DNA from: Escherichia coli
GTDB lineage: Bacteria > Pseudomonadota > Gammaproteobacteria > Enterobacterales > Enterobacteriaceae
DNA: 64,000 nucleotides
Reading direction: 5' to 3' (one strand)
Assembly (NCBI RefSeq): GCF_050920415.1
Contig: NZ_CP169309.1
The notes below the pieces were generated by a model. It saw nothing but the letters and a program-made list of their open reading frames with translations. It was not told the origin of the DNA and did no database searches. Below, piece after piece: positions 1 to 19,507 of the stretch (its first letter is position 1; every line of letters starts with the position of its first letter). The translations under genes were made by a program, and so were the position numbers.

Positions 1-1424
1 AGCCATACAGTGATCAGCAGTTAACTGCTGGTGTCAGTGCAGCACTTGGTTTATCAACAATTCCAACCAACACCAAACGCTATACCGGTAATGCAGCATT
101 CGATGCGGCATCTCCTGAGGCGCAGGCAAGTTTTATGCGACAGGCGGATCAACTGCGTCGGCAGCAGCAGGCTGAATATAAAACGATGATTGACAGCCAG
201 GTTCGCGATGCGACAGCTGCGTATATGCGTGGCGTTGAATTTCCTAACCCACCTGGTGAGGCTGATTTTATTGCAGCTTATGGAGTCAGAGAAGGAAAAC
301 TGCGATATACCGAGTTCAGAAATACGCAAATCGCCGGACAGTATATAGGCTCTTTCCGCAACATGCCGACAAGCAGCATTACAGCATATGTTGAGCAATT
401 ACGCCCGGATACTGGTGAGACAGGGGAGGGTTATGCGGCACGAGCCGCTCTTTATGACAACGTTGTGTCGGCTGCAAGTCAGGTGATAAAGCAGCGACAG
501 GCTGATCCTGTACAGTTCTCTCTTGCCGCCGGACAGGCAAAGCCTATCGACATGAGCAATAAGGATAACTTTGGACAGAGCGTTGCCTTGCGTGCTGCTC
601 AGGTCAGTGACCTTGCTAAGTCATATGGCACTCCACTGACGTTCTTTTCCAAAGACGAGGCCAATCAGATCGGTGTTTTCTTTCGTGATGCGCCCGTTTC
701 CCAACAGGCAGCATATCTCGATACCATCAGGCAGAGCACTGGTGGTGGGCAGGTGTATATGTCAGCACTACAGCAGATCAGTGCCAACGCTCCATCTGCT
801 GCCGTTGCCGGGATACTGATGGATAAGCCAGGTGGTATTTTGGCAGAAAAAAACTGGTTTAATCCGGATGTTTCCGTGTCTCCTGAAACCGCTGCGCAGA
901 CAATTCTTGCTGGCGCGGCGGCTCGTAAAGGTACTGATGACGCGAAAGGTATTCCGATGCCTAAAGATGCTGATCTCCGCCTTGAGTTTTCTGACATGGT
1001 GAAGGATGCATTTGCTGGTGATGCTCAGGGGGCATCAATGGCATACGAGATCGCAAAGGACTATTACGCTGGTGTGATGGCGAAAAAAGGCGTGGTATCA
1101 GGCGAAATTGACAATGATATCTGGAAACAGGCTGTTAACGTAGCTACAGGTGGCGTGCATGACTATAACGGAATGGGGAATGTTCTTTTGCCGTGGGGAA
1201 TGTCTGCAGAGCAATTCGATAAGCAGGTTAATCAGGCTTGGAATGAACAAGTTGTTGGCACAGGGATAAAAACACCGCCTGGTCAGTATGGTTTGCAAAG
1301 TTACGGCGATAGTCAGTACCTGGTGAAACTTGGTACTGGTTATCTGCTAAAAGATGATGGTTCTCCCGTTGTTCTTGATCTGACACAGAAGCGTCAGAGA
1401 TTCTCCGGAGATATTCCGCAATGA
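1..1424 (+). CDS. Phage virion internal/ejection-type protein, 5' end outside window
   Basis: Frame 3 is open from base 3 to the stop at 1422-1424 (ORF track starts at the first in-window ATG, 135). Acidic Ala/Gly/Gln-rich product directly upstream of two more large same-strand ORFs and a tailspike; ATGA overlap with the next ORF. Function inferred from position only. Confidence 0.5.
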   Translation, partial: PYSDQQLTAGVSAALGLSTIPTNTKRYTGNAAFDAASPEAQASFMRQADQLRRQQQAEYKTMIDSQVRDATAAYMRGVEFPNPPGEADFIAAYGVREGKLRYTEFRNTQIAGQYIGSFRNMPTSSITAYVEQLRPDTGETGEGYAARAALYDNVVSAASQVIKQRQADPVQFSLAAGQAKPIDMSNKDNFGQSVALRAAQVSDLAKSYGTPLTFFSKDEANQIGVFFRDAPVSQQAAYLDTIRQSTGGGQVYMSALQQISANAPSAAVAGILMDKPGGILAEKNWFNPDVSVSPETAAQTILAGAAARKGTDDAKGIPMPKDADLRLEFSDMVKDAFAGDAQGASMAYEIAKDYYAGVMAKKGVVSGEIDNDIWKQAVNVATGGVHDYNGMGNVLLPWGMSAEQFDKQVNQAWNEQVVGTGIKTPPGQYGLQSYGDSQYLVKLGTGYLLKDDGSPVVLDLTQKRQRFSGDIPQ

Positions 1425-3223
1425 GTTACTTTGGCCTTAATCCAGTAAACCAGAATCAGCAGCTTGACGAAGCAGCATCAAATCCAGCTGGCTTTAACAG
1501 CGATGTTGGTTTTTTCGACAATGCTGTAGGAGCGGCATTGTCTGGTTTGTACTCCGGGCTGGTGGCAAAGCCAGATCAGTTGCTCTGGGCAGGGATGGAT
1601 AAAATCGTATCCCCGATTGCTCAGTTTGTTAACGAAAACACCTCGCTCAATGACACTTCAGTTTCATACATTGCCGAGCAGAGAAAACTAGCAGAGCAGC
1701 AGGTTAAGCGGCTGACGCCTGATGCCGCGACAACCGGAACCGCCGGGCAGGTTCTTTATGGGTTGTTCGATATGGGCGGGCAGGCTGTTATCGGTACAAC
1801 GCTCGGTGGTCCGGCCGGAGGTGCTGCGGCGGTAACTTCGCTACAGGGTTTTTCTGAGTTTGAACGGCTGACAGCACAGGGTGTTGATTTCAGGACGGCG
1901 CAGGAAGCGGGATTAGTGCAGGGTATTACTGCTGGTGCCGGAACAATGATCCCTATGAGCCTCGGGTTACGTGCTGGTGGTGCGCTGGCGGAAGGTGTGG
2001 CGGCTCAGCTTGCGCGGACGGGTGAAAGTTCAGTGCGACGCGCCGCAGCAACAGCAGTAAGTGCAACGCCAGATATTGCCTATGCCGCAGGTACAAATAT
2101 TGCGTTCGGTATGGCACAGCGTGGGCTTACTGCAAAAACGCTTCGTGATGGTGGCTATAGCGAAATGGCTAACCAGTATGATGTGTTGGATCGACAGGCA
2201 ATTGCTATTGATGCTGTTCTTGGGGTGGCGTTTGGTGGTGTCGGCAGATTTATTAACTCTCGCGGCGAGTCTACAAGCGCACCAAATTTTTCACCAGTTG
2301 ATATTGATGCTGCACTGGCGGCGAATGCCGCTCATCATGCTGAAATTGATATTGCGCCCGGCGTGCCGATCAACGTGCTTTCGCGCAATTCTCACATTCA
2401 GGCTCTGCGAAAAGCTATGTCTGATGTTAGCCAGGGGAGACCTGTAGACGTTGCCAGCATTGTTGAGTCTGCATCTTTCAGTGAAATTCCTGGGCGCAAG
2501 AGTCTGCTGTCTCAGGCAGTTAATGAGGCTCTGTCATCTGTAGATGATGGAGTAACGGCGCGCGCTATAGAAAATCGGTTGCTTGAAGAACAGGCCGCGC
2601 AGCTTTTGCCGCGTGGAGATAGACAGGTTTACCAGTCTGAAATCGCTAATAGCCAACGAATTATTGAAAATCTCACTGAACAGCGTGCACAAATTCTTGC
2701 AGAAGAGCCAACCGGTAGCGGTAAAGCTTTGTCTCGTGCTCGATCAGATAAACAGGCCAGACTTCGTGATATTGATCAACGAATCCGGCAGGCACAAGAA
2801 CGCCTGGAATTTTCCCGTAACGCGTTGGCACCGCACGAGCCTGGAGGTCAGTTTTTTGAAGCTCGAGCAGAACTGGCACGGCGACAGCAGGCAGAAAGTG
2901 AACTTAATGCTCAGGCTGTTTCATTCTATAAAACAGCAGAGGTCAGGACGCCAGACGAAGTAGCTCCTTTTGAGCCCGGTAAGATATTGCAACAGACAGA
3001 ACAAAAAATGATGGCAGATCCGGCAGGAGATATTGATCTGCGTATAGCTGAAGACTCGCTGCTTGAATCACCTGACATGATAATCACCGTGCTGGATGAT
3101 GATGGTAATCCACAATCGCGCAGTGCGCGTGAAGTACTGGATGAAGCTAACAGGGAAAGTGAGCAGGCAATACAGGATTCCAGCCTGTTTGATGTTGCTG
3201 TGGCGTGTTTCTTGAGAGGTTAA
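1421..3223 (+). CDS. Phage virion internal/ejection-type protein (600 aa)
   Basis: 600-aa ORF translationally coupled to the upstream ORF (ATGA overlap); Gly/Ala-rich segments and a coiled-coil-like Q/R/E-rich region. No catalytic motif recognised by eye. Confidence 0.5.
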   Translation: MSYFGLNPVNQNQQLDEAASNPAGFNSDVGFFDNAVGAALSGLYSGLVAKPDQLLWAGMDKIVSPIAQFVNENTSLNDTSVSYIAEQRKLAEQQVKRLTPDAATTGTAGQVLYGLFDMGGQAVIGTTLGGPAGGAAAVTSLQGFSEFERLTAQGVDFRTAQEAGLVQGITAGAGTMIPMSLGLRAGGALAEGVAAQLARTGESSVRRAAATAVSATPDIAYAAGTNIAFGMAQRGLTAKTLRDGGYSEMANQYDVLDRQAIAIDAVLGVAFGGVGRFINSRGESTSAPNFSPVDIDAALAANAAHHAEIDIAPGVPINVLSRNSHIQALRKAMSDVSQGRPVDVASIVESASFSEIPGRKSLLSQAVNEALSSVDDGVTARAIENRLLEEQAAQLLPRGDRQVYQSEIANSQRIIENLTEQRAQILAEEPTGSGKALSRARSDKQARLRDIDQRIRQAQERLEFSRNALAPHEPGGQFFEARAELARRQQAESELNAQAVSFYKTAEVRTPDEVAPFEPGKILQQTEQKMMADPAGDIDLRIAEDSLLESPDMIITVLDDDGNPQSRSAREVLDEANRESEQAIQDSSLFDVAVACFLRG

Positions 3224-3786
3224 ATTAAATGAGACAGGAATGTATACAAGCGGTCCAGCAGGCGGCGCAGCGCACGTTAACGGCGCGAGAAATACAGAAC
3301 ATTGAAGACCGCATTTATCGCAATATGCGCTCCATTGCTCGTGATGACCCTATGTCGTGGCGACAACTTTCCGAGTCAGAGCGGCTGTATCGTGCAGCAC
3401 AATTGGCATCTGAAGAATTACAGCGAGAAGCGGCATTAAAGAAACGTCGTGTGGCTCTCACTATAGCTGCACGTCAGAGATTGGATAAATTTATCAATAG
3501 CTATCAAGGGGCTGATGGGAAACTTGGCGCTCTTAACCGTACTATAGCTTTTAATGCAGACGGTAAATCTAATTTCCTCTCTGTTGAATCCAGAACAAAA
3601 GCCACCCGTGATTATGCATTGAGTCAATTGCAGGAGGCATTCGAAGCAGTTGATCCTCGCTTTTTTGGTCTGTTTGAAGATGAAGCGGGCGTACGTAGAC
3701 TGGCCCCCTGAATCTCCAGACAACCAGTATCACTTAAATAAGTGATAGTCTTAATACTAGTTTTTAGACTAGTCATTGGAGAACAG

Positions 3787-4152
3787 ATGATTGATGTCTT
3801 AGGGCCGGAGAAACGCAGACGGCGTACCACACAGGAAAAGATCGCAATTGTTCAGCAGAGCTTTGAACCGGGGATGACGGTCTCCCTCGTTGCCCGGCAA
3901 CATGGTGTAGCAGCCAGCCAGTTATTTCTCTGGCGTAAGCAATACCAGGAAGGAAGTCTTACTGCTGTCGCCGCCGGAGAACAGGTTGTTCCTGCCTCTG
4001 AACTTGCTGCCGCCATGAAGCAGATTAAAGAACTCCAGCGCCTGCTCGGCAAGAAAACGATGGAAAATGAACTCCTCAAAGAAGCCGTTGAATATGGACG
4101 GGCAAAAAAGTGGATAGCGCACGCGCCCTTATTGCCCGGGGATGGGGAGTAA
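3787..4152 (+). CDS. insC: IS2 transposase OrfA (InsC)
   Basis: Translation [41 protein letters not shown]... recognised as IS2 InsC; ORF track starts 15 codons upstream at an ATG within the left inverted repeat. Confidence 0.9.
4104..4110 (+). other. A6G slippery heptamer, putative -1 programmed frameshift site joining insC and insD
   Basis: AAAAAAG at the 3' end of insC inside the insC/insD overlap; IS3-family elements produce the OrfAB transposase by -1 frameshifting at such sites. Confidence 0.55.
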
Positions 4153-5015
4153 GCTTAGTCAGCCGTTGTCTCCGGGTGTCGCGTGCGCAGTTGCACGTCA
4201 TTCTCAGACGAACCGATGACTGGATGGATGGCCGCCGCAGTCGTCACACTGATGATACGGATGTGCTTCTCCGTATACACCATGTTATCGGAGAGCTGCC
4301 CACGTATGGTTATCGTCGGGTATGGGCGCTGCTTCGCAGACAGGCAGAACTTGATGGTATGCCTGCGATCAATGCCAAACGTGTTTACCGGATCATGCGC
4401 CAGAATGCGCTGTTGCTTGAGCGAAAACCTGCTGTACCGCCATCGAAACGGGCACATACAGGCAGAGTGGCCGTGAAAGAAAGCAATCAGCGATGGTGCT
4501 CTGACGGGTTCGAGTTCTGCTGTGATAACGGAGAGAGACTGCGTGTCACGTTCGCGCTGGACTGCTGTGATCGTGAGGCACTGCACTGGGCGGTGACTAC
4601 TGGCGGCTTCAACAGTGAAACAGTACAGGACGTCATGCTGGGAGCGGTGGAACGCCGCTTCGGCAACGATCTTCCGTCGTCTCCAGTGGAGTGGCTGACG
4701 GATAATGGTTCATGCTACCGGGCTAATGAAACACGCCAGTTCGCCCGGATGTTGGGACTTGAACCGAAGAACACGGCGGTGCGGAGTCCGGAGAGTAACG
4801 GAATAGCAGAGAGCTTCGTGAAAACGATAAAGCGTGACTACATCAGTATCATGCCCAAACCAGACGGGTTAACGGCAGCAAAGAACCTTGCAGAGGCGTT
4901 CGAGCATTATAACGAATGGCATCCGCATAGTGCGCTGGGTTATCGCTCGCCACGGGAATATCTGCGGCAGCGGGCTTGTAATGGGTTAAGTGATAACAGA
5001 TGTCTGGAAATATAG
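4110..5015 (+). CDS. insD: IS2 transposase OrfB (InsD), DDE integrase-like
   Basis: 301-aa ORF overlapping insC in the -1 frame; sequence ...[50 protein letters not shown]... recognised as IS2 InsD. Confidence 0.9.
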
Positions 5016-7048
5016 GGGCAAATCCAGTACGTGACCTGGTATATGAAATGCGGGGGCAAAATACTGGCAATGCTAAAGCAAGAAAAGGTGCTAAGGCGTG
5101 GAGAGAAGTTACAGAGCTGCTGCGCCGCCGGTTTAATGATGCTGGTGGGGACATTGGCTATCTCGAAAACTGGGGGATCCCTCAACATCATTCTATGGAA
5201 AAGGTTGGGGCGGTATCAAAGGATAAGTGGGTTAGCGATGTTATAGGTAAGCTGGATCGCAAATATTATATCCGAGCCGATGGACAACTGATGAACGATG
5301 CCGAGTTGTCTGCATTTCTTGGAGAGGCTTATAACACGATCGCTACTGGTGGGCTGAATAAGCTTACTGATACCGGAATGCGAATTTCCGGCGCACGTGC
5401 TAACCGTGGTAATGCATCACGACAGATACATTTCAAAGATGCAGATTCCTATCTGCAATATCAGCAACTTTATGGCGATCGCTCTCTATGGGAAATCATG
5501 GTCGGTCACCTGGAAGGTATCAGTAAAGATATTGCACTGGTGGAAACATATGGCCCAAACCCCGATCATGTTTTCCGCTCTCTTCTTGATCAGGTGAAGG
5601 CAGAAACGGCAACAGCTAACCCGAGTAAAACCGGTAAAGTCGAGCGGCTGGCGAACAACACAGAGAATCTGTACAACTTTATTTCCGGAAAGACACAGCC
5701 TGTAGCAAATCCGCACATCGCGCGATGGTCTGACAATATCCGCAACTGGCTGGTTGCCAGCAGACTCGGATCCGCGTTGCTGTCATCGTTCTCTGATCTT
5801 GGAACCATGTATCTGTCTGCGAAGGTGACCAACCTTCCAATGAACCAGTTATTCCGCAACCAGCTTGAAGCTATGGACCCAACGAACCGTACTGAGCTTG
5901 CGCGGGCGCGCCGCGCTGGTCTGGCGATGGAATCTCTACTTGGCAGCGTTAACCGCTGGGCGATGGATAATATGGGGCCGTCAGTGTCTCGTTGGGCTGC
6001 AACGGCGGTAATGCGTGCCAGTGGGCTTACAGCATGGTCAGATGCGCACAAGCGCGCCTATGGCGTAACCATGATGGGAAGCCTGGGAGAAGTAGTGTCA
6101 CGGACACCAGACCTTCGTAGCCTCGATGACTCTGATTTTCGTATCCTGAAAAGCAAAGGGATTACTGACACAGACTGGAGCGTATGGAAGCTGGCGCAAC
6201 AGGAGGACTGGGGGAACGGTAATAATACGATGCTGACACCGGAAAGCATTATGCGTATCCCTGATTCAGCAGTTAAACATCTTGGTGAGCCTGAACGCGT
6301 GAAATTTGAGGCAATGCGTAAACTGCTCGGTGCCGTAACTGAAGAAGTTGATATGGCTGTTATTACACCGGGAGCACGTGAGCAACTGATAACCGGTTCT
6401 GGTATTCAGCGTGGAACATGGAAAGGTGAATTAACGAGAAGTGTTTTCCTGTTTAAATCGTTCCCTATCTCGGTGGTTATGCGTCACTGGTCACGCGCTA
6501 TGGGTATGCCGTCTGCTGGTGGGCGTGCGGCATATATTGCGACGTTTATTGCCAGCACGACCATTCTTGGCGCTTTGTCTCAGCAACTTAACGACCTTGC
6601 GTCTGGTCGTAATCATCGCGAGATGACAGGAGAAGATGCTGCTAAATTTTGGCTTGGTGCTCTACTGAAAGGTGGTGGTCTTGGCCTTTACGGTGACTTT
6701 TTATTGTCAGATCACACTAGGTACGGAAGCGGCGCGCTGGCGTCGATGCTTGGCCCGGTAGCTGGTCTGGTTGATGACGTAGTGAAGATTGCTCAGGGCA
6801 TACCGTTAAATGCTGTGGAAGGGAAGAATGAGCAGACTGGTGGTGATCTGGTTAAGCTGGGGAAGGGGCTGATGCCAGGTGCGAATCTCTGGTACTTGAA
6901 GGCGGCTCTCGATCACATGATCTTTAACCAGATGCAGGAGTATTTTTCACCAGGCTATTTGCGTAAAATGGAGCAACGTTCGAAGAAAGAGTTTAACCAG
7001 ACATACTGGTGGCGACCACAGGATGTCACTCCGCAATAAGGATGAGAA

Positions 7049-7189
7049 ATGATTGCTTTTATTCTTGTTGTGTTTGCGCTTGTTGCACTTGGCGTTATGA
7101 ACCGTAAATGTATCATTGACGATGGCGAATTTGCTGTTGCAGTTATTTTGATATTATCTGGTGTAGCAGGATACATAGGCTTGTCATAA
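7049..7189 (+). CDS. Hypothetical small hydrophobic peptide (46 aa, two predicted hydrophobic segments)
   Basis: ATG at 7049 preceded by AAGGATGAG 4-10 nt upstream; translation MIAFILVVFALVALGVMNRKCIIDDGEFAVAVILILSGVAGYIGLS; stop TAA 7187-7189; followed by palindromes and a terminator. Too short for the ORF track. Confidence 0.35.
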   Translation: MIAFILVVFALVALGVMNRKCIIDDGEFAVAVILILSGVAGYIGLS

Positions 7190-7209
7190 CGTGAGTGTGA
7201 CATGTCACA

Positions 7210-7233
7210 GGCCGCTTTCGCGGCCTTTTCTTT
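7210..7233 (+). terminator. Rho-independent terminator (GGCCGC-TTTC-GCGGCC followed by TTTTCTTT)
   Basis: 6-bp GC stem with 4-nt loop followed by a T-run on the + strand; preceded by the perfect palindrome TGTGACATGTCACA (7196-7209). Overlaps the stop codon of the convergent minus-strand ORF. Confidence 0.5.
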
Positions 7234-7489
7234 ATGTGGTTTGTTTTCGTAGTTGTTCGGCACAATAGTCGAGATGTGTTTGCAGATCCTGCATAGACAT
7301 CTGTGAGCTGGTGACGTAGTTAATCAGTGCAGTCAGTTCGGCAAGTGGGCCATCGACATTAAATCCATCCTTATCGAGATCCCGGAGTAATTTCATCAAG
7401 TGCGATCCTTCCACCAGTGACCTGACGCCTCCCGGCGTGTGAATCCTTTCGGTAAATCCCTCTTCCAGTGGATAGTGATACTGCTGCAT
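7232..7489 (-). CDS. Hypothetical small acidic protein (85 aa from the ATG at 7489) behind a LexA box
   Basis: ORF track gives 7232..7507 from a TTG; a better start is the ATG at 7489 (MQQYHYPLEEGF...) with GGAGAAG 7 nt upstream. A strong LexA box lies about 20 nt upstream. No family recognised by eye. Confidence 0.5.
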   Translation of the reverse strand: MQQYHYPLEEGFTERIHTPGGVRSLVEGSHLMKLLRDLDKDGFNVDGPLAELTALINYVTSSQMSMQDLQTHLDYCAEQLRKQTT

Positions 7490-7508
7490 CTTATCTTCTC
7501 CATGCAAT

Positions 7509-7528
7509 AACTGTATGTTTATACAGTA
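7509..7528. promoter_or_regulatory. LexA (SOS) box AACTGTATGTTTATACAGTA
   Basis: CTGT-N8-ACAG with an AT-rich spacer, 17/20 match to the E. coli consensus TACTGTATATATATACAGTA; sits in the divergent region between the small minus-strand ORF and the tailspike gene. Confidence 0.6.
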
Positions 7529-7684
7529 TCAAATAATTTGTTTGCTATCCAGCACGTTTTGCGAATCACCTGAAAGGTAATATCTGCTCACATTAACACT
7601 CTTTCCATCCATATATGGTTTTTCAGGTAATAGAATAACCAGATATGCGGCGCAACGGGTGCTGCGACTATCTGGAGATTTAAC

Positions 7685-9940
7685 ATGACGGTCTCAACCG
7701 AAGTTGACCACAACGAATACACAGGCAATGGCGTTACGACTTCATTCCCTTATACCTTTAGGGTTTTCAAGGAATCTGATCTGGTAGTGCAGGTGGTTGA
7801 CCTTGACGAAAATATCGCTGTGCTGGCTCTGGATACTGATTACACTGTCACTGGGGCTGGTGGATATAACGGCGGTAATGTAATTCTGTCGAAGGCGTTA
7901 GCTAACGGTTACCAGATTTCTATATCACGAGAGCTCCCGGTTACGCAGGAAACTGATTTGCGTAATCAGGGGAAGTTCTTTGCAGAAGTGCATGAGGATG
8001 CTTTTGATAAGCTAACGATGCTGATCCAGCAGGTTCGAAGTTGGTTTAGCTTGGCGCTGCGCAAGCCGTCATTCGTGGCAAATTATTATAACGCGCTGAA
8101 CAACTATATTCGAAACCTGAAAGACCCGGTAAACCCGCAGGATGCATCCACAAAGAATTATGTGGACAGTACGGTTTTATCGAATATCGACCATACAATC
8201 CGTGTTCCTGATTCTTATATCGATCCGCTGCCACCTCTCGCTCAACTTGAAGGAAGCATAATCGGCATCGCCAACGGTAAGCCCGTTCCGTTCCCTGTGC
8301 CTTCAGGAACGGCGGCTGACGTATTCAACCAGTTGGCCAGCAGCGCTGACGGGAAAGGTGATGCGCTGATAACAGTGAAGCAGCCTTACCAGGGGGCAAT
8401 TTCTCTTTCGCAGCATATAAAAAATGCACAAGCCATTAGTGTTGTTGATTTTGGAGCGACAATTGATGGAACGCTTCACCCTTTAAGCGAGATATTTTCA
8501 ACACTATCAGCTGCTCAGATGGTATATCCATTTGTTTCATCTCTATCTCAATCTGTTGATTATGCTGCGCTTCAGTCCGCATGTAACACGGGAAAAACAG
8601 TGCTTATTCCAAAGGGAACTGGTTACTATAATTCAACTATTTTTCTGAAAAACTCCGTTAGGATTGTTGGAGAGGGAACTGATACAATAAATAGAGCGCA
8701 ATCATTTATGTCTATTGTTGGTAATATTTCAGCCTTTGCTTTAGATCAAGGTGATTCCCTATCGACAAAAATGATTCAGATTTTTATTGATGGTCTTTAT
8801 ATTTTCTATGATCCAGGAACCACACCAACGAATCCTGAAAATGATGGTGGGAAAATTGCATTTAATTTCTACTCGACAATTCCAAATTCAACAAGCTTGG
8901 AAATGTCTGAAATTAAAAACTGTACAGTTCATGGTGCATGGTCATGCTTTAATGATCAGACTGGCACATACTTGACAAAACTTACGAATGTGTGGGCCAG
9001 AAACTGCCATAATGGTTTTACAAAAGGAACTGGCACTACCATTCTGATGGAAAGATGTTATACATCTGGATGTATATCACCATATCAGTTTGGTTCTGTC
9101 TTTGCAGCTACAATGATTAACTGTGCCATGGATGGATCAAATATTTCGTTAAACGCAGGTTCGCTTGGTGGGGCTGGCGTTCATGTTCTTAACACACATA
9201 GTTTTAACATTATTGGTTTTGATGCGGAGGGTAACACCATCTCTACAGATGGTTATGGAGAGGCAGCACTATTCCATTTCGAAAATAGTAGTGGTGGCAT
9301 TTCTGGCCTGACTGCACATCAGAACAGCATGCGAAGTGTTGCGCCAAGTGATGCTGGTGTAGTTTCCTACATCAGGGCGTCAGGTAGCAGCGATGTTAAA
9401 ATTGAGTCATCAGAAGATGATTTATCTGACACCAACACAGTTGCATATACTGGGTCTGGGTATCCCATCATGCTACATGCAACTGACACAGCTAAAATAA
9501 GCGTCTTTAATAGCAGATTCAGGGCGACTACCACTGGTACCCCTGTCTTAAGTACGCTAAGTACTGGTGATGTATCATGGTATGACTGCCCTAAAAAAAC
9601 AGGACTTATCGTAGATGGTTATTCACAAATAACATCTAAGGAAGGATTGCAAACATCATGCTTCTATACCAGTAAAGGCTCTACTGCTGTTGCTGAAAAT
9701 ACTCCGACAACACTTTTCTCTCTACCAGATTCGCAAGGTACTTACATTATTAGCGTATGGGTGGCTGGAAGCGGAGAAAATTACGCATCTACACAACTGG
9801 CAATGTATGATGGAGATAAGCTAATTCTTGTTGCGTTAAAAATAGCAGCATTTCTTAGTTTTTCAGCAACAGGGAGAATTGTAACCATTACAAGCCAGGT
9901 GGCAGGCACTTTAAACTGGACTTACACTAAAATAGGTTGA
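7685..9940 (+). CDS. Phage tailspike / tail fibre (751 aa), probable O-polysaccharide-specific receptor-binding protein
   Basis: N-terminus MTVSTEVDHNEYTGNGVTTSFPYTFRVF... has the Y-x-G-x-G...F...F signature of podovirus tail-fibre/tailspike particle-binding domains; from memory it resembles epsilon15/phiV10-type tailspikes (unverified). The C-terminal two thirds are visibly AT-rich and Ser/Thr/Asn/Gly-rich, consistent with a beta-helical receptor-binding domain. Confidence 0.75.
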   Translation: MTVSTEVDHNEYTGNGVTTSFPYTFRVFKESDLVVQVVDLDENIAVLALDTDYTVTGAGGYNGGNVILSKALANGYQISISRELPVTQETDLRNQGKFFAEVHEDAFDKLTMLIQQVRSWFSLALRKPSFVANYYNALNNYIRNLKDPVNPQDASTKNYVDSTVLSNIDHTIRVPDSYIDPLPPLAQLEGSIIGIANGKPVPFPVPSGTAADVFNQLASSADGKGDALITVKQPYQGAISLSQHIKNAQAISVVDFGATIDGTLHPLSEIFSTLSAAQMVYPFVSSLSQSVDYAALQSACNTGKTVLIPKGTGYYNSTIFLKNSVRIVGEGTDTINRAQSFMSIVGNISAFALDQGDSLSTKMIQIFIDGLYIFYDPGTTPTNPENDGGKIAFNFYSTIPNSTSLEMSEIKNCTVHGAWSCFNDQTGTYLTKLTNVWARNCHNGFTKGTGTTILMERCYTSGCISPYQFGSVFAATMINCAMDGSNISLNAGSLGGAGVHVLNTHSFNIIGFDAEGNTISTDGYGEAALFHFENSSGGISGLTAHQNSMRSVAPSDAGVVSYIRASGSSDVKIESSEDDLSDTNTVAYTGSGYPIMLHATDTAKISVFNSRFRATTTGTPVLSTLSTGDVSWYDCPKKTGLIVDGYSQITSKEGLQTSCFYTSKGSTAVAENTPTTLFSLPDSQGTYIISVWVAGSGENYASTQLAMYDGDKLILVALKIAAFLSFSATGRIVTITSQVAGTLNWTYTKIG

Positions 9941-9975
9941 TGTTATGCGTGGGGAGCAATGCTCCCCATCATCAA

Positions 9976-11835
9976 TTAAAAAATAAATGGCTTGTCATTT
10001 TTTAATTTTTTCCCAAACTCCCTTGAGCCTTCTAGAGTGAAATGACTATTATCAAAGTAAAGATAATCACCTTTAGTAGAAAGGATGTCACAATTCATTG
10101 ACTTTCCGCACTGCTCGGCAAGCGTATCTATGTATTTATACGAATGCTGGTTGCTACCAAGATAGCCTTTTATCGTATTGTTAATTTCAACTCTACTATT
10201 GTCATAATACTTTTTAGAGTATTTATTTATCCCATCAACTGTGTTTACGCCAGATTTAAAAGCAGACTTAATTATTTCCATTGGCTGTGCCGTAAACTTC
10301 ATCTTAGGCCCAAATACAATAACTTCTCCTTTAGTCCTCTCCTGTATTTTGCCTATAGAGTAAAGCATCCCGAACAGATCGCCAACGCCATAATCATCAT
10401 GAAGGATTATAATGTTAGCTTCAGCTATGGCTGGAGATGAGATTACGTCATTGAATATTTTTTTGCACTTTTCTACATAGGGCATGTCGTTTGGTGTATA
10501 ACCAAAGTTTGAACATAAGTTTGTAGTTCTTATATAAGTTATATCACCCTTCATCCCATTTTCAGTAAGTGCATAAGTCAGATCTATGCCATGAGAATTA
10601 CCGATTATTACTATTTTTTTGTCACCTGTCTTCGGTACAGGGTGAGGCTTGTCTCCATCAACCCAATACCTGTTCATTTGTTCTTTTAGCTGTTCGGACG
10701 TCATTGTGGCAAACGAAAACCTTGATGGAATTCCAGATAGCAATAGTACAGCGAAGCACAAACCAACTACACCACCTACAGGTAGCACGATTGAAGTTAA
10801 TTCATTCAAGGACCTGCCGTTTTTAAATTTTGAAAGTGCCTTTCTTGAAGGGTTTTCAATTAAATAAAATGATGCGGCACCAATAAGAATTGATAAGGCA
10901 ACACCTGATACTGTATAAACCATATCATCCATCTTATTCATTGACATATATACAACTATGGGCCAGTGAACCAGATATACCGAGTATGAAATTTTCCCAA
11001 CCCATTGAGATAATGCATTATCAAGTAATAGGTTATCTTTACATCCAAGATAAATGACAAAGAAAGTAGAAACGACTGGTATTAAGGCAAGATACCCAGG
11101 CCACTTCATTAAGCTGTTAAGCAAGACTATCCCCGATACTGCAAAGGCTATGGCAATCCATCTAAATACAGCAGTGCGTTTTGAATTTTGTATAGTAGGA
11201 AGAAGGTAGGCAAGGCCGCCAGCCAGCATCTCCCAAGCTCTGCTTGACAGAAGATAAAATGCAGCGCCCTGATTATTATAAGAAAGATACACTGAGGCAG
11301 TAAATGATATAATTGCAAGGATGGCAACAACATACCTTATATGCTTAGCGCCCAATAGCTTTGCAATCACCATCATTATGATTGGATATACCATGTAAAA
11401 CTGCCACTCTACAGAAAGCGACCATGTATGAAGAAGCCATTTCTGCTTTGATGCAGTATCAAAATAATCAATGCTATGGTAATACTCAACGTTTGAGAAA
11501 AATAAAAGGCTACTTCTTACGTGTTGAGCCAGGTATTCATATTCAGAAGGTAAAAGAATGAAGTAACCAACTATCAGAACAGCAACTGAAACTACAGTTA
11601 AAGCAGGTATAATTCTTCTTGCCCTATCAAGATAAAATCCTAACAGTGAAAAGTTTCCATTAGATATCTTTGTGTAAATTATTCCAGTCATCAGATACCC
11701 TGATATAACAAAGAATATATCTACGCCTGAAAATCCACCAGAGAACCCTTTGACTCCGAAGTGATAAAGGACAACTGCCATAACAGCAATAGCCCTAAGC
11801 CCGCCTATATCTGTTCTGTATTTTAAAGAAGACAT
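9976..11835 (-). CDS. Membrane acyltransferase-3 family protein with C-terminal SGNH-like domain; probable O-antigen acetyltransferase (OafA/Oac-like)
   Basis: 619 aa; N-terminal R-x10-H motif (RTDIGGLRAIAVMAVVLYH) and about 10 hydrophobic helices typical of acyltransferase-3; C-terminal soluble domain with a GNSH block. Strongly AT-rich gene, convergent with the tailspike. Confidence 0.8.
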   Translation of the reverse strand: MSSLKYRTDIGGLRAIAVMAVVLYHFGVKGFSGGFSGVDIFFVISGYLMTGIIYTKISNGNFSLLGFYLDRARRIIPALTVVSVAVLIVGYFILLPSEYEYLAQHVRSSLLFFSNVEYYHSIDYFDTASKQKWLLHTWSLSVEWQFYMVYPIIMMVIAKLLGAKHIRYVVAILAIISFTASVYLSYNNQGAAFYLLSSRAWEMLAGGLAYLLPTIQNSKRTAVFRWIAIAFAVSGIVLLNSLMKWPGYLALIPVVSTFFVIYLGCKDNLLLDNALSQWVGKISYSVYLVHWPIVVYMSMNKMDDMVYTVSGVALSILIGAASFYLIENPSRKALSKFKNGRSLNELTSIVLPVGGVVGLCFAVLLLSGIPSRFSFATMTSEQLKEQMNRYWVDGDKPHPVPKTGDKKIVIIGNSHGIDLTYALTENGMKGDITYIRTTNLCSNFGYTPNDMPYVEKCKKIFNDVISSPAIAEANIIILHDDYGVGDLFGMLYSIGKIQERTKGEVIVFGPKMKFTAQPMEIIKSAFKSGVNTVDGINKYSKKYYDNSRVEINNTIKGYLGSNQHSYKYIDTLAEQCGKSMNCDILSTKGDYLYFDNSHFTLEGSREFGKKLKNDKPFIF

Positions 11836-11982: not shown

Positions 11983-12396
11983 GTGGTCACTATGGCGCAT
12001 GTGCTGACAACAGAGTCAGTAAATCAGGGGTTAAGCCTGACTGCACTGGCGTCCGTGTTCGTTGGTATACCGCCTGAGGTGGCTTTAGGTGCTCTTGCTG
12101 GTGCGGTAATTTTTGTTACCTCAGCGGTTGAGTATCCGATAAAGCGTAGGTTGCTCCTGGCGCTCCTAAGCTTCCTCTGCGGCGTTCTCTTCTATAAAGC
12201 GACAGCTTCCATTCTGATTGGCTTTGCCAGCCTGATACCAACGATTACGCAGGACTCTTTTGAGAAGGGCATTGTGTATTCCGCCGGGGCATTCGTGTCT
12301 GCAATCGTCGCTGTTCGCATTGGCATCTGGCTGTATCACCGTTCTGAAAATCCGCGCGACATGATCCCGGGGAGAAAAGACGATGACCAGTCCTGA
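11983..12396 (+). CDS. Putative holin (137 aa multi-span membrane protein)
   Basis: First gene of a + strand cluster ending in endolysin and Rz/Rz1; several hydrophobic helices and a charged C-terminus; two closely spaced in-frame Met codons (MVTMAHV). Holin call is positional. Confidence 0.5.
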   Translation: MVTMAHVLTTESVNQGLSLTALASVFVGIPPEVALGALAGAVIFVTSAVEYPIKRRLLLALLSFLCGVLFYKATASILIGFASLIPTITQDSFEKGIVYSAGAFVSAIVAVRIGIWLYHRSENPRDMIPGRKDDDQS

Positions 12397-12676
12397 TCTG
12401 CTTCTCATCCTTAACGCCGCTATCTGCGGTGGCATTGCAATCCGAGTGCTTCTGTTCCGCCGTGACGGGTCACGTCACCGCTGGTGGGGTGGGTGGCTCG
12501 CCTATCTGCTGATCGTCGTGGCAGCCAGCGTACCTATCCGGACTTTCTACGGGTACTACGTCAGCGCCGACTGGTCAGAAGTCATCATCAAAGCCGTGTT
12601 CCTGGCTGCGCTCATCAAGACAAAAGGGAACGTGGTGCAAATTTTCAAGATAACGAGGTCCCAGCATGGACATTAA
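12383..12676 (+). CDS. Putative second holin/antiholin-like membrane protein (97 aa)
   Basis: Overlaps the end of the previous ORF and the start of the endolysin gene; two or three hydrophobic segments; basic C-terminus. Confidence 0.45.
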   Translation: MTSPDLLLILNAAICGGIAIRVLLFRRDGSRHRWWGGWLAYLLIVVAASVPIRTFYGYYVSADWSEVIIKAVFLAALIKTKGNVVQIFKITRSQHGH

Positions 12677-13295
12677 CCAATTCCAGCGTGCAGCTGGCAT
12701 CAGTGAGGTGCTGGCCGCGCGCTGGTACCTGCATATCACCGCAGCCATGAAAGAGTTTGGCATCGAGCAACCGCTGCACCAGGCGATGTTTATCGCGCAG
12801 GTGGGGCATGAGTCTACTGGTTTCACCCGGCTGCAGGAAAACTTCAACTACAGCGTTGCAGGGCTCGCAGGATTCGTCCGCGCCGGGCGACTTACTCAGG
12901 GTCAGGCCAACGCGCTGGGCCGCCGTGCTGGCGAGCCATCGTTACCGCTGGAGCGCCAGCGCGCGATCGCCAATCTGGCGTACAGCAAACGCATGGGGAA
13001 CAATGCCCCTGGTGATGGCTGGAATTACCGTGGCCGCGGACTTATCCAGATTACCGGTTTGAATAACTATCGTGATTGCGGAAACGTCCTGAAAGTGGAC
13101 CTGCTGGAGAATCCTGAACTGTTGGCGCAGGACGAATATGCGGCTCGTAGCGCGGCGTGGTTCTTCGCCAGCAAAGGATGCATGAAGTATACCGGCGATA
13201 TTGCACGTGTAACTCTGATTATCAATGGTGGCCGGAACGGCATCGACGACCGGCGCGCGCGGTACATCACTGCCAGTAAGGTGCTGGCGGTATGA
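12666..13295 (+). CDS. Endolysin, glycoside hydrolase family 19 (chitinase-like lysozyme)
   Basis: 209 aa; motif FIAQVGHESTGF...NYRGRGLIQITG typical of GH19-type phage endolysins; position between holin-like genes and Rz. Confidence 0.85.
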   Translation: MDINQFQRAAGISEVLAARWYLHITAAMKEFGIEQPLHQAMFIAQVGHESTGFTRLQENFNYSVAGLAGFVRAGRLTQGQANALGRRAGEPSLPLERQRAIANLAYSKRMGNNAPGDGWNYRGRGLIQITGLNNYRDCGNVLKVDLLENPELLAQDEYAARSAAWFFASKGCMKYTGDIARVTLIINGGRNGIDDRRARYITASKVLAV

Positions 13296-13774
13296 TCTGG
13301 GCATTCGCAAAAGCATACTGGAAACAGTTGCTTATCGTGGTGATGCTTGCTGTTCTGGTCATATCGGGAATTGTTTCCTGGAATGTACACGGCAGTCGTC
13401 AGTACGATGCCGGGTATGCGCAGGCGAAGGAAGACCGCAAAGCTGAAGATGAGATAGTTCGTCAGCACTACGAACAGGAGAAATCGATCAATGAACGTGA
13501 AGCGCAGCAGAGGATCGACCAGGCGCGCAATGATGCTCTTGATGCTGCCGCTCGCGCTGGCCGGTTGCAGCAACAACTCTTTGCCATCCGTGAGCAGCTC
13601 AGGCAGTATAACGCCATTGTCGGCGCTGGGACGTCAGCCGCAGACACCGGAGTTTTGCTTGCCGACGTGCTCAGCAAATCTCTCGAGAGAAACAGACAAC
13701 TGGCAGAGTATGCTGACCGGGCAGCCGAAGCCGGAAGAGTCTGCGAAAAACAATACGACACCCTGACCAGATAG
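13292..13774 (+). CDS. Rz-like inner-membrane spanin (i-spanin)
   Basis: 160 aa; N-terminal transmembrane helix followed by coiled-coil-prone Q/R/E/A-rich periplasmic domain; ATGA overlap with the endolysin stop; contains an embedded +1 frame lipoprotein ORF. Confidence 0.75.
   Translation: MIWAFAKAYWKQLLIVVMLAVLVISGIVSWNVHGSRQYDAGYAQAKEDRKAEDEIVRQHYEQEKSINEREAQQRIDQARNDALDAAARAGRLQQQLFAIREQLRQYNAIVGAGTSAADTGVLLADVLSKSLERNRQLAEYADRAAEAGRVCEKQYDTLTR
13530..13766 (+). CDS. Rz1-like outer-membrane lipoprotein spanin (o-spanin), embedded in Rz
   Basis: +1 frame ORF wholly inside Rz; from ATG at 13530 the product MMLLMLPLALAGCS... has a signal peptide with lipobox LAGC and a Pro-rich mature part. 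ORF track starts it further upstream at 13491. Confidence 0.7.
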   Translation: MMLLMLPLALAGCSNNSLPSVSSSGSITPLSALGRQPQTPEFCLPTCSANLSRETDNWQSMLTGQPKPEESAKNNTTP

Positions 13775-13884
13775 CATGGCATTTTTCATGGTACTGATTT
13801 CCGGTGACGGTATATAAAACGGTACTAGAAAAATGAAGTTTTGGAAAAATGTTATCACTCAATTGGTTATGATTGTCGTAAATA

Positions 13885-13899
13885 ATTGAGTGGGAATGA
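13885..13899 (+). other. Putative prophage attR core / remnant of the guaA 3' end (ATT GAG TGG GAA TGA = IEWE-stop)
   Basis: 15-nt string encoding the C-terminal residues ...IEWE plus stop of GMP synthase as recalled for E. coli GuaA, in the orientation expected for guaA converging on yfgI; preceded in frame by a stop codon, so it is an isolated gene end, not a gene. Confidence 0.45.
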
Positions 13900-13924
13900 T
13901 TTGATCCCTGCACTATGAATTAGC

Positions 13925-13953
13925 AAAACCCTCTGTTACTACAGAGGGTTTTT
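13925..13953. terminator. Bidirectional rho-independent terminator (AAAA-CCCTCTGT-TACT-ACAGAGGG-TTTTT)
   Basis: Perfect 8-bp stem, 4-nt loop, flanked by A-run and T-run; lies between the guaA-end remnant and the convergent yfgI stop. Confidence 0.65.
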
Positions 13954-13991
13954 ATACTCACGAATCATAGGATTGAAGTTACTGACATCGC

Positions 13992-14531
13992 TTAGTTAAA
14001 CCAGCTGTCCGATTTGTTCTCTTCTGCTTTGCCCACGCTTTTCATCAGATCGCGACCGCCTTCAGTCATATTCCTGTTTGCGTCAGCTTCAGATTGCACC
14101 ACATCGGTTTGCGCAGCTTTGTGCTTCAGTTCCTGATCGATAAATTCGTTTTCTCGCTTAACGCGGGCTTCTTCTTTCGCCAGCGCCAGTTTTTGTTTCT
14201 GAATCTCTAAGCTGCGTAGCTCATCTTCATAACTTTGATCGCGTTTCTTGTCCGCAGTGGCTTCGGCGTCCAGTTTATCCTGACGAGCTTTCTTATTCGC
14301 CGCTGCCGTTGCCGCTCTTTTATTAGCCGCGGCCTGGGCGTTTGCGCGACGTTGCTTCTCTTGCTGGATTTCCCTGTTGCGCTCCGCGACCCATTCGTCA
14401 TGCTGCCTTTGCTCTTCATTTTTACCTTGCTGTTCCGCTTCTGCGACAGCAGAGAGTTGATCCTGCAATGATGAGGCGATAGCCGGATAGCTTAAGGAGG
14501 CTAAGATGGCGCAAAGAAAAACTTTCTTCAT
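13992..14531 (-). CDS. yfgI: YfgI, periplasmic protein (179 aa)
   Basis: Signal peptide MKKVFLCAILASLSYPAIA followed by a highly charged coiled-coil-like region; length and position match E. coli yfgI. Confidence 0.85.
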   Translation of the reverse strand: MKKVFLCAILASLSYPAIASSLQDQLSAVAEAEQQGKNEEQRQHDEWVAERNREIQQEKQRRANAQAAANKRAATAAANKKARQDKLDAEATADKKRDQSYEDELRSLEIQKQKLALAKEEARVKRENEFIDQELKHKAAQTDVVQSEADANRNMTEGGRDLMKSVGKAEENKSDSWFN

Positions 14532-14546
14532 GACTCCTCCTGATTA

Positions 14547-15065
14547 TTAGCTCTTTTCAGGACATTTGGTATTTGGCTGAATACGCGTTTCGTTATACGT
14601 CGTGGTAATAACAACGGCTAAACCTGTCGTAAACTGGCACTCTTTACCCACCTGGGTGGAGGTATACACTTTGGTGCCTTCCTTATACGTTAGAGAAACA
14701 CCTTCCACTAAGGTTTTATCATTCACCATAGAACCTGCTGCCGCGCCAACAGCTCCGCCGCCAACTGCACCTGCCGTCGTTCCGGAATTGCTGCCAGACC
14801 CCACGTTGTGGCCGATAACACCGCCAGCGACTGCACCAATAAGCGCGCCGAAGGCTTGTGCGTTTCGTTTATTTTGGGAGTTGTCTACGGCAACTTTTGC
14901 GGGAAGAATGGAAATAATATTAACGGTTTTAGTTTCTTGTTTGGTATTCAGTTGATCGGTTTGATAAACATCGGCGGCATGATCATCAGCATTTGACTGG
15001 CATCCTGCCAGAGTGAATGACGCTAACATTGCCACAGGCAGAAGACATTTTTTAAATTTCATCAC
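14547..15065 (-). CDS. yfgH: YfgH, outer-membrane lipoprotein with glycine-zipper region (172 aa)
   Basis: Lipobox LAGCQ; Gly-rich GxxxG repeats (GALIGAVAGGVIGHNVGSG...); matches E. coli yfgH. Confidence 0.85.
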   Translation of the reverse strand: MMKFKKCLLPVAMLASFTLAGCQSNADDHAADVYQTDQLNTKQETKTVNIISILPAKVAVDNSQNKRNAQAFGALIGAVAGGVIGHNVGSGSNSGTTAGAVGGGAVGAAAGSMVNDKTLVEGVSLTYKEGTKVYTSTQVGKECQFTTGLAVVITTTYNETRIQPNTKCPEKS

Positions 15066-15375
15066 TATTCCTTGTTATACACATTACGAAAAATAAGACA
15101 TTTAAGATCATCAAAAGAGGAAAGTAAATGTATTGCGTATAAAGGAATAGATTAAATTTATTAAAATTCATGTGGAAAATAATTTATAAAAATACATCAT
15201 TAAAACATATGTATTAATTTTATATTTATTTCGCAGCCAAACAGGATAAACATCAGTCAGGACAAAGACGTAAAATTTAAGATGAAAGAATATCTGCCGC
15301 TTTGATAATCCCAAAGAGCAAAAGCATCCGACAGCGAGGTGCCGTTATGTTCTGTGAAAGTGGAGAAGGTAACCG

Positions 15376-15567
15376 CTAACGTTGTACCGGTGATTCGACG
15401 GAGAGTGTGGATTGCTGAGCTTCTTTTTTGCTCTGATGGTGCTGCCATGCACCGACGGACGAGTAGATAAAACGGCCAAAGAAGAAGATAAAGCTGATGA
15501 GCAGTACGATACGGGTCATGCGACTGTTAAATCGGTGTCGTTTTCGCATACTGGTTGCCTGACTCAC
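15376..15567 (-). CDS. yfgG: YfgG, small membrane protein (63 aa)
   Basis: Translation MSQATSMRKRHRFNSRMTRIVLLISFIFFFGRFIYSSVGAWQHH... matches E. coli YfgG as recalled. Confidence 0.8.
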   Translation of the reverse strand: MSQATSMRKRHRFNSRMTRIVLLISFIFFFGRFIYSSVGAWQHHQSKKEAQQSTLSVESPVQR

Positions 15568-17930: not shown

Positions 17931-18256
17931 TATTTTTTCCAGAGGCGGTCGAACTCCGCCTTCGCAAAATAAGCGGAAGCCTGGCGAAGGATATCGTTAC
18001 TGCGGCGCAGTTCACGATTTTCACGTTCCAGCTCTTTCAGACGCTGACGTTCAGCGGTGGTGAGCCCACCATCACCGCTCCCGGTATCCCTCTCATGCTG
18101 GCGAACCCAGACACGCAGAGTCTCTGGCGTACAGCCAATCTTTGGAGCAATGGAACAAATTGCCGCCCATTGTGAGTCATATTCGCCCTGACTTTCCAGA
18201 ACCATACGAACTGCGCGTTGACGGACTTCGGGGGAAAAACGAGTATTTTTAGTCAT
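17930..18256 (-). CDS. IS3-family transposase OrfA (helix-turn-helix, leucine zipper)
   Basis: 108 aa [57 protein letters not shown]...; ends in an A6 run (plus-strand T6 around 17933-17938) at the OrfA/OrfB junction, the likely frameshift window. Confidence 0.9.
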
Positions 18257-19480: not shown

Positions 19481-19507
19481 GCGGGCCGACATTTCTTGTC
19501 GGCCCGC
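19481..19507. terminator. Bidirectional terminator hairpin between convergent pdeF and ppx (GCGGGCCGACA-TTTCT-TGTCGGCCCGC)
   Basis: 11-bp GC-rich perfect inverted repeat with 5-nt loop, 6 nt after the pdeF stop and just beyond the ppx stop. Confidence 0.55.

Follow-up and report, generated by a model that had tools for sequence, protein, structure and literature searches.

An apparently recent IS2 insertion interrupts a phiV10 gp20-type virion gene in an Escherichia coli prophage

A resident IS2 element has, with high probability, transposed into codon 156 of an 824-codon gene of the phiV10 gp20 / epsilon15 gp17 type, carried by a prophage of Escherichia coli. The prophage occupies the left end of the stretch of DNA analyzed here (64,000 nucleotides, hereafter the window). 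Its disrupted gene is predicted, with support from homology and gene order, to encode a relative of T7 gp16 (internal virion protein D), and the prophage is very probably unable to make infectious particles.

The inserted element is a complete IS2 (3696-5026, 1331 bp, plus strand), sharing 100% identity over positions 1-1331 with E. coli elements annotated as "IS3-like element IS2 family transposase". IS2, an IS3-family element, transposes by a copy-out/paste-in route via a circular intermediate. Nucleotide searching returned 5,454 records with a copy at a coverage of at least 80%, and the copy at 3696-5026 is the only one within the 64-kb window. Its terminal inverted repeats (3696-3737 and 4985-5026) are imperfect, about 41-42 bp long, and align as inverted repeats with one indel. 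Both coding frames are intact, and the transposase and the phage gene are co-oriented. The 121-aa orfA product (InsC/TnpA repressor; 3787-4152, plus strand) matches NCBIfam NF006928 "IS2 repressor TnpA" over residues 1-121 of 121 with 276 bits, against a cut-off of 229; the 301-codon orfB frame (InsD/TnpB DDE transposase domain; 4110-5015, plus strand) matches NF006918 "IS2 transposase TnpB" over 1-301 of 301 with 728 bits, against a cut-off of 597. An A6G slippery motif, AAAAAAG, is read at 4104-4110 on the plus strand in the overlap of orfA and orfB; in IS3-family elements this motif is the site of programmed -1 frameshifting. The initial annotation had proposed a complete 1331-bp IS2 at this position, and the full-length match to annotated IS2 bears this out.

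Directly outside the two ends of IS2 lie copies of the target-site duplication GTACG, at 3691-3695 on the left and 5027-5031 on the right. IS2 characteristically duplicates 5 bp of its target, and a 5-bp match at fixed positions has a chance of about 1 in 1024. When IS2 and one copy of GTACG are removed, the 5' fragment of the phiV10 gp20-like gene (3229-3695, plus strand; codons 1-155 plus 2 nt) joins the 3' fragment (5032-7039, plus strand; third base of codon 156 to codon 824 plus stop) to give 2475 nt, or 824 codons and a stop, with zero internal stops. The abutting duplication and the restoration of an in-frame ORF of about 824 codons had both been described in the initial annotation and both hold, the latter with the addition that one GTACG copy must also be deleted.

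The restored product is 100% identical to WP_001248460.1 from a prophage of E. coli SCU-116 (0 differences in 824 residues; at the nucleotide level the gene differs once, synonymously). Against phiV10 gp20 (YP_512274.1, "virion structural protein"), also 824 aa, it shows 99.4% identity, with 5 differences in 824. The empty site in SCU-116 reads ...GGGCGTACG followed directly by TGACC, with GTACG present once. In 315 E. coli and 12 phage records this empty-site junction is unbroken; in a spread sample of 60 drawn from the 326 E. coli records holding the gene, 58 have it uninterrupted at 2475 bp; the gene is truncated in the prophages of E. coli IAI39 and YJR. The comparison with uninterrupted homologues suggested at the outset thus identifies both fragments as one gene in relatives. 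The interrupted allele gave no matches elsewhere: a query of the left IS2 junction found none at a coverage of at least 80% among 5,426 complete E. coli genomes, the exact junction 42-mer had zero matches in GTDB representative genomes and in IMG/VR, and exact look-up of both truncated proteins found neither in a collection of 15 billion proteins. The ORFs at 3229-3711 and 5000-7039 should be annotated together as a single IS2-disrupted pseudogene of the phiV10 gp20-type ejection protein.

T7 gp16, or internal virion protein D, is an ejection protein that reaches the inner membrane and forms part of the podovirus DNA-ejection apparatus. Several lines of evidence place the restored protein in this group. 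It matched PHROG 684 "virion structural protein" at full length, and its homologues (5,086 representatives, nearly all about 820-850 aa) cover residues 1-823 as one polypeptide. By tblastn, full-length similarity was found to BcepC6B gp17 (4e-104), an epsilon15-type phage (2e-85) and VP5 gp18 (2e-65); BcepC6B gp17, epsilon15-type gp17 and VP5 gp18 are listed as homologues of the T7 gp16-like internal virion protein D (PMC4819975, Table 2), and the published link of BcepC6B gp17-type proteins to T7 gp16 was built on chained HMM-HMM comparisons (PMC4819975). Gene order agrees: in SCU-116 a "virion core protein, T7 gp14 family" is followed by an 837-aa ORF, a 600-aa ORF and then the gp20-like gene, which closes the internal-protein cluster as its last large gene.

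The AlphaFold model of the restored protein (pLDDT 83, pTM 0.84) is all-alpha, and it matches BFVD entries that carry the names internal virion protein D or internal core protein (E 1e-5 to 1e-9). A Foldseek search of the PDB returned a single match below E 0.3, a 1223-residue chain of "core proteins of mature T7". At the level of sequence profiles, phmmer found nothing in the PDB, a 38-member family profile gave only chance-level matches in the PDB at E <= 10 and no similarity to T7 gp16, and Pfam domains were found neither in the protein nor in any of the 38 relatives. The likeness to T7 gp16 lies in family homology, in an all-alpha make-up at about 800 aa and in the position at the end of the cluster after a T7 gp14-family gene. 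As for differences, T7 gp16 exceeds the gp20-like protein by about 500 residues and has an N-terminal lytic transglycosylase domain that the latter lacks; a peptidoglycan hydrolase domain is missing from the P22 and Sf6 homologues too (PMC8954989). No strongly hydrophobic 19-residue segment was found in the protein. Taken together, the full-length homology to the proteins assigned in PMC4819975 and the gene order support the first description of the product as an ejection or internal virion protein, of the phiV10 gp20 / epsilon15 gp17 type.

On sequence grounds, the prophage is phiV10/epsilon15-like (Uetakevirus-type), with late genes collinear with those of phiV10. Its right 14 kb are visible; the start of the window is equivalent to phiV10 position 13633, and about 26 kb, the part for integrase, regulation, replication and head genes, lie beyond the window. 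Positions 1-3696 and 5027-7234 match phiV10 13633-19530 at 98.2-98.5%, and the lysis cassette matches at 84%. The window begins inside a phiV10 gp18-like virion protein gene, of which the C-terminal 473 codons are open (1-1424, plus strand), followed by an open gp19-like gene (600 aa; 1421-3223, plus strand), the interrupted gp20-like gene and a gp21-like small membrane-protein gene (46 aa; 7049-7189, plus strand). The last of these ends the operon and is the sole gene exposed to polarity from IS2. Downstream are the tailspike (7685-9940, plus strand), an O-antigen acetylase (9976-11835, minus strand), two holins (11983-12396 and 12383-12676), a GH19-type endolysin (12666-13295) and the Rz and Rz1 spanins (13292-13774 and 13491-13766), all of them full-length ORFs with full-length PHROG matches. 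The seroconversion and lysis genes are therefore intact at the ORF level, as originally noted. The adjoining module for host range and serotype conversion departs from that of phiV10: the C-terminal part of the tailspike diverges, the acetylase is 619 aa here compared with the 338-aa Oac of phiV10, and the Bro-N gene located between gp21 and gp24 in phiV10 is absent.

The prophage is integrated at the 3' end of guaA. The attR junction with the chromosome (13885-13899) is ATTGAGTGGGAATGA, the last 15 nt of guaA, and from there onward the window matches the prophage-free E. coli MFDS1022581, in which the guaA-yfgI site is empty. A tRNA integration site was considered and rejected, since no tRNA gene occurs in the window and the junction falls within the 3' end of guaA. 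Positions 13885-17000 and 18311-19640 are 100% identical to MFDS1022581, and 2 of 44,461 bp differ across 19540-64000; the chromosomal flank in the window, 48 kb in all, is 99.996-100% identical between the two strains, which are near-clonal there. IS2 matches occur at 20 chromosomal and 11 plasmid places in MFDS1022581, with a full-length, 100% identical copy as the best of each record, and the roughly 30 IS2 copies of an MFDS1022581-type background are the likely donors.

These comparisons support a recent insertion, because the gene fragments show no further decay, the IS2 is identical to other copies, and both prophage and insertion are missing from a near-clonal strain. The initial reading of a simple and relatively recent transposition is likewise consistent with the contiguous empty site, the zero amino acid differences from SCU-116, the 100% identical IS2 and its two intact ORFs.

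The prophage may have been defective before IS2 arrived, through lesions beyond the window, in which case the insertion would be a neutral event in dead DNA. About 26 kb of the prophage are out of view, and related E. coli prophages are damaged too, with a stop in SCU-116 and a truncated gp20-like gene in IAI39 and YJR. Against this, all visible genes are full length, and the gp18 (visible part), gp19, restored gp20 and gp21 proteins are identical to their SCU-116 homologues. The near-clonal prophage-free strain further points to recent lysogenization by a phage that was viable at that time, or else to recent precise excision. We consider an earlier defect improbable on this balance, and favor IS2 as the inactivating event. 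The SCU-116 prophage itself carries its internal stop in a gp15-like tail gene.

At the insertion, the interrupted upstream frame forms ORF 3229-3711, so that the protein would be shortened to 160 aa, consisting of 156 native residues and four IS-encoded residues, RLAP, before a stop. Downstream, ORF 5000-7039 (679 aa) takes its ATG from within the right end of IS2 and encodes 9 IS2 residues followed by native residues 155-824, confirming that this ATG is in frame with the downstream fragment. Expression of that frame driven by IS2, as first suggested, has no signal in its favor. Predicted Shine-Dalgarno pairing is weak at ATG 5000 (-3.1 kcal/mol) and at ATG 5048 (-2.8), compared with -6.0 to -6.6 for the neighboring real starts, and a consensus scan of 3100-5400 found no sigma-70-like promoter on the plus strand. 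We also looked for an outward-directed or fusion promoter at the right end of IS2. The likely outward -35, located via a simulated circle junction, is TGGAAA at 5005-5010; where a -10 would be needed, the actual flank has TACGTG, and this candidate was rejected. Transcription from such a promoter would in any event begin downstream of ATG 5000. IS2 insertions are classically polar, and the remaining 670 codons would have neither a promoter of their own nor a good ribosome-binding site. Promoter activity was undetectable in the right 150 bp of IS2 (PMC12095673). The 679-aa product is thus conceivable solely through read-through transcription, which no signal supports, and the in-frame ATG 5000 leaves room for a low-level product truncated at its N-terminus.

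Such a product bears on the reading in which the prophage is functional, either because residues 1-156 and 155-824 (from ATG 5000 or 5048) work as a split protein or because the N-terminal 156 residues are dispensable given read-through. The frame of ORF 5000-7039 is the native one, a low-confidence loop of the model (residues 141-150) precedes the insertion, PHROGs holds half-length families covering 1-466 and 504-823, and BFVD contains a 165-aa viral protein identical over the first 157 residues; these observations suggest that the family tolerates annotation in pieces. The known natural split, however, is near residue 470 rather than 156, and the N-terminal region is conserved family-wide, with C5, G14, A56 and G147 nearly invariant. 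Together with the missing promoter-like site on the plus strand of 3100-5400, the lack of detectable promoter activity in the IS2 right end (PMC12095673), the weak Shine-Dalgarno sequences at both ATGs and the general polarity of IS2, this makes a functional prophage very improbable. We give hardly any credence to the specific version in which a 679-aa (or 663-aa) read-through C-terminal polypeptide and the 160-aa N-terminal fragment still form a working ejection apparatus; were it correct, the IS2-bearing prophage would stay infectious, with IS2 packaged and spread as cargo of the phage. Finally, a misplaced repeat in the assembly, with the real gene intact, might be invoked on the strength of the many identical IS2 copies that hamper short-read assembly in this clone and the absence of the junction from every other complete genome (5,426 E. 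coli), but misassembly would not yield a perfect 5-bp duplication at both ends of the element and an in-frame gene on its removal, and with both junctions base-clean this explanation is scarcely tenable.

We return to disruption of the gp20-like gene by transposition and its consequence for the phage. The epsilon15 gene 17 mutants reportedly described by Guichard et al. in 2013 offer an analogue, and it is by analogy with T7 gp16, P22 gp16 and epsilon15 gene 17 that a loss of infectivity is expected. More generally, infectivity is stated to require ejection proteins (PMC8954989). With the gene truncated and 670 codons lacking expression signals, an induced prophage could still excise, replicate, package its DNA and lyse the cell, but its particles would be non-infectious for want of an essential ejection protein. 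The O-antigen acetylase, and with it lysogenic conversion, and the lysis functions would stay unaffected. Of the initial proposal of a defective prophage, the part concerning an ejection-protein gene broken by IS2 stands, and we infer the defect from that one lesion, seen in the right 14 kb of the prophage. Annotation should mark this prophage as probably unable to yield infectious particles. MFDS1022581 could serve both as a natural indicator host and as the control strain in tests of O-antigen acetylation.

The element itself does not differ from the IS2 of Escherichia coli in length, sequence, ORFs, A6G motif, terminal repeats or 5-bp duplication; relative to known IS2 copies, the insertion site alone is new. 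Inactivation of prophage genes by insertion sequences, described as grounding or decay, is widely known in E. coli and Shigella. We conclude that this IS2 insertion is real but ordinary, a textbook-type case of prophage decay of an already known kind, of little importance beyond annotation and opening no new question. Its interest lies in being a cleanly dated case of a high-copy resident IS2 striking a newly acquired prophage. Like other instances of prophage decay, it consists of a single insertion sequence in an essential late gene with the lysogenic-conversion genes kept, and shows no difference in kind; what distinguishes it is that it is very young and has in MFDS1022581 a near-clonal, prophage-free comparator.

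A conserved single gene, homologous to gp20 of phage phiV10, spans 3229-7039 and is precisely split by an intact IS2 flanked by a 5-bp duplication. Reading of the sequence from 3100 to 7200, together with a script, places the left end of the element at 3696 (beginning TAGACTGGCCCCCTGAATCTCC) and the right end at 5026 (finishing GGGGCAAATCCA), a span of 1331 bp, with copies of GTACG at 3691-3695 and 5027-5031. The IS2 coordinates, the duplication and the restored frame in the initial annotation are exact to the base. Over all 1331 bp it shares 100% identity with sequences annotated "IS3-like element IS2 family transposase", which are found in 4,853 of 5,426 complete E. coli genomes. It encodes intact orfA (3787-4152, 121 aa; 276 bits to NCBIfam "IS2 repressor TnpA", cut-off 229) and intact orfB (4110-5015, 301 codons; 728 bits to "IS2 transposase TnpB", cut-off 597), with a slippery motif, AAAAAAG, at 4104-4110. 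Alignment of the two ends demonstrated imperfect inverted repeats of ~42 bp with one indel. As a member of the IS3 family, IS2 transposes by a copy-out/paste-in route with figure-eight and minicircle intermediates, and leaves a 5-bp duplication of its target. Every defining feature of IS2 is present, and the window holds no further copy.

Removal of IS2 and one GTACG joins 3229-3695 to 5032-7039, giving 2475 nt (824 codons) whose sole stop is terminal. An 885-nt query across this restored junction is uninterrupted in 12 phage records (97.5-98.8% identity), including phiV10, O157 typing phages 9 and 10, phiv142-3 and ZX5, and also matches 315 E. coli records. The phiV10 gene (PhiV10p20, "virion structural protein", 16861-19335) is exactly 2475 bp, as is its homologue in the prophage of E. 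coli SCU-116 (WP_001248460.1), where the empty site reads ...GGGCGTACG/TGACC... with a single GTACG. The restored protein differs from the SCU-116 protein at 0 of 824 residues and from phiV10 gp20 at 5 of 824; at the nucleotide level, both fragments together show one synonymous difference from SCU-116, at position 3567. The full restored gene occurs in 323 of the 5,426 E. coli genomes, and the IS2/gene junction of the window in none. In a spread sample of 60 from 326 matching E. coli records, 58 carry the gene as a single 2475-bp piece and two (IAI39 and YJR) carry truncated copies. We checked whether the two fragments belong to different genes in intact relatives and found that they do not, since the junction is contiguous and the gene a single 2475-bp unit there. 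A BFVD fold search returned UniProt A0A2I6TCD7, a 165-aa viral protein 100% identical to restored residues 1-157 (window 3229-3695 plus 5032-5035); an N-terminal fragment ending almost at the IS2 site is thus separately annotated in some viral record. Phage record CP025713.1 (YDC107_2), which starts at gene nucleotide 736, may be related to it. The annotation of the SCU-116 prophage lists its gp15-like tail protein gene (12203-14674) as a pseudogene that contains an internal stop, so this closest intact-site comparator may itself be defective.

Homologues and gene order, together with moderate fold evidence, give good support to the earlier view that the interrupted gene encodes an internal virion, or ejection, protein. 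The restored protein aligns with PHROG 684 ("virion structural protein") along its entire length; neither a Pfam domain nor sequence similarity to any solved structure was found for it. When 1.84 billion representative proteins were searched exhaustively with HMMER (E <= 0.001), 5,086 relatives were returned; of the best 150, most have lengths of 810-870 aa and align across residues 1-823 without a break. Among phage genomes searched by tblastn, full-length matches were obtained to gp17 of Burkholderia phage BcepC6B (31% identity, 4e-104), to an epsilon15-type Salmonella phage at the gene-17 position (28%, 2e-85), and to Vibrio phage VP5 (28%) and Liberibacter phages; a "putative internal virion protein" of Pelagibacter phages was also matched. 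Hardies et al. list BcepC6B gp17, epsilon15 gp17, VP5 gp18 and Liberibacter SC1 gp9 as divergent homologues of T7 internal virion protein D (gp16), on the basis of chained HMM-HMM comparisons (PMC4819975, Table 2). The gene order in SCU-116 ("virion core protein, T7 gp14 family", an 837-aa ORF, a 600-aa ORF, then the gp20-like gene) agrees with this assignment. Architecture varies within the family (P0004, P0006, P0019, P0022, P0028, P0032, P0074): certain representatives of 1040-1170 aa align as two separate stretches, of which the first stops around residue 570-580, and other members form the C-terminal part of fusion proteins of 1700-2900 aa. In PHROGs, families covering half the length also occur (1-466 and 504-823), and the break between them falls at a low-confidence linker (468-472) of the structural model.

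That AlphaFold2 model, built from a 38-sequence alignment of the family, is almost wholly alpha-helical (mean pLDDT 83, pTM 0.84). Foldseek returned 54 matches among viral predicted structures at E <= 0.001. Apart from close members of the family, matches fall on proteins of Bordetella phage BB8 ("Internal protein D"), Providencia phage PSTRCR_120 ("Internal virion protein D"), Ralstonia phage RSB3 ("putative internal core protein") and a phiKMV-like Pseudomonas phage ("putative internal (core) protein"), and on an SLT-domain protein; E values are 1e-5 to 1e-9 and TM scores 0.4-0.57. Among solved structures the sole match below E 0.3 was 9jyy_I, from "core proteins of mature T7" (E 9.9e-3, probability 0.92), which must be gp16 because its chain length of 1223 residues leaves no other candidate. 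The family profile did not recover the T7 gp16 chain, and a hydropathy scan found no strongly hydrophobic segment in the restored protein. Published remote homology and moderate fold evidence suggest strict membership with T7 gp16. Whereas T7 gp16 possesses a transglycosylase domain, the restored protein does not. The gp18-like virion protein (window 3-1424; PHROG 992, "head protein") also resembles PHROG 1044 ("endolysin"), less strongly, over visible residues 2-203, a hint that in phiV10-type phages this upstream internal protein may have the muralytic activity that belongs to gp16 in T7.

The window opens inside the gp18-like gene, at the equivalent of phiV10 position 13633. The visible part of gp18 (473 codons), gp19 (600 aa) and gp21 (46 aa) all have open frames, and their proteins are identical to those of SCU-116. 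Essentially full-length PHROG matches were obtained for a small conserved ORF (7232-7507, minus strand), the tailspike (751 aa), an O-antigen acetylase (619 aa, minus strand), two holins, a GH19-type endolysin, and the Rz and Rz1 spanins. At the junction, ATTGAGTGGGAATGA represents the guaA 3' end, which places the prophage there, as in SCU-116; no tRNA gene lies within the window. The host-range and serotype-conversion module is mosaic (window 7190-11835 versus phiV10 19530-24652 and SCU-116 prophage 22669-30220). The gp21-like gene directly adjoins a gp24-like ORF, with none of the Bro-N antirepressor genes that phiV10 and SCU-116 have, and just the N-terminus of the tailspike (~260 aa) is common to relatives. 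The conversion gene here encodes the 619-aa acetylase, in contrast to the 338-aa Oac of phiV10.

Translation of gp20 would end after 156 native residues plus RLAP, and the remaining 670 codons would be left without a promoter or good ribosome-binding site. An IS2-driven 679-aa product had been proposed for this downstream fragment (5000-7039). Its ATG at 5000, inside the right end of IS2, is real and in frame; expression driven by IS2 found no further support. A consensus scan of 3100-5400 found no sigma-70-like promoter on the plus strand. IS2, like IS911, has an outward -35 in its right end, active only when a -10 stands at the proper distance (PMC9330008). A simulated circle junction put this -35 at TGGAAA (5005-5010), its partner being TAGACT in the left end; the real flank has TACGTG instead at the required spacing, and a transcript from such a promoter would begin downstream of the ATG. 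A reporter study detected no promoter activity in the right-most 150 bp of IS2 (PMC12095673). Shine-Dalgarno pairing is weak at ATG 5000 (-3.1 kcal/mol) and ATG 5048 (-2.8), versus -6.0 to -6.6 kcal/mol at the gp19, gp20, gp21 and tailspike starts. Only read-through starting within IS2 could yield a truncated product; such a product is unlikely, and no signal points to it.

With gp20 split, the prophage could probably make no infectious particles, because podovirus ejection proteins are needed for infectivity (PMC8954989). On the visible third of the prophage, "defective prophage" is a probable description. Lysis and O-antigen modification would stay unaffected. In phiV10 a terminator is annotated just after gp21, so polarity from IS2 would reach only the rest of gp20 and gp21.

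The chromosome begins at 13885. Aligned to E. coli MFDS1022581 (NZ_CP169399.1), which was isolated from food in Korea, it shows 100% identity in 13885-17000 and in 18311-19640, and 2 of the 44,461 positions in 19540-64000 are mismatched. In that strain yfgI directly follows guaA, with no prophage, and pdeF is intact; given the near-identity of the flanks, the source strain is a near-clonal relative differing by the prophage and two IS insertions. The second insertion, a 1310-bp IS3-family element (17001-18310, minus strand), interrupts pdeF (yfgF) between the two copies of a 3-bp CAT duplication (16998-17000 and 18311-18313). It has ORFs at 17930-18256 (108 aa) and 17043-17930 (295 aa), and its ends, TGAACCGCCCCGGGTTTCCTGGAGAG, are presumably of the IS629/IS1203 type. 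In CE10 and IAI39, too, pdeF contains an IS3-family element. IS2 matches 20 chromosomal and 11 plasmid places in MFDS1022581, the best per record at 100% over the full length, and the resident IS2 population of the clone is the obvious donor. A recent insertion is supported by the lack of further fragment decay, the identity of this IS2 to other copies and the near-clonal strain without the prophage.

Overall, the initial annotation is upheld, with qualification of the defective state and the truncated product. Complete E. coli genomes, GTDB representatives, IMG/VR and the protein collection were searched for this IS2 allele, and it turned up in none of them. The knockout of a prophage late gene by an insertion sequence, with conversion genes kept, is commonplace in E. 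coli and Shigella. The prophage described here is a case of the same phenomenon, its target being the phiV10 gp20 / epsilon15 gp17 homologue, and what is new is the particular allele only.
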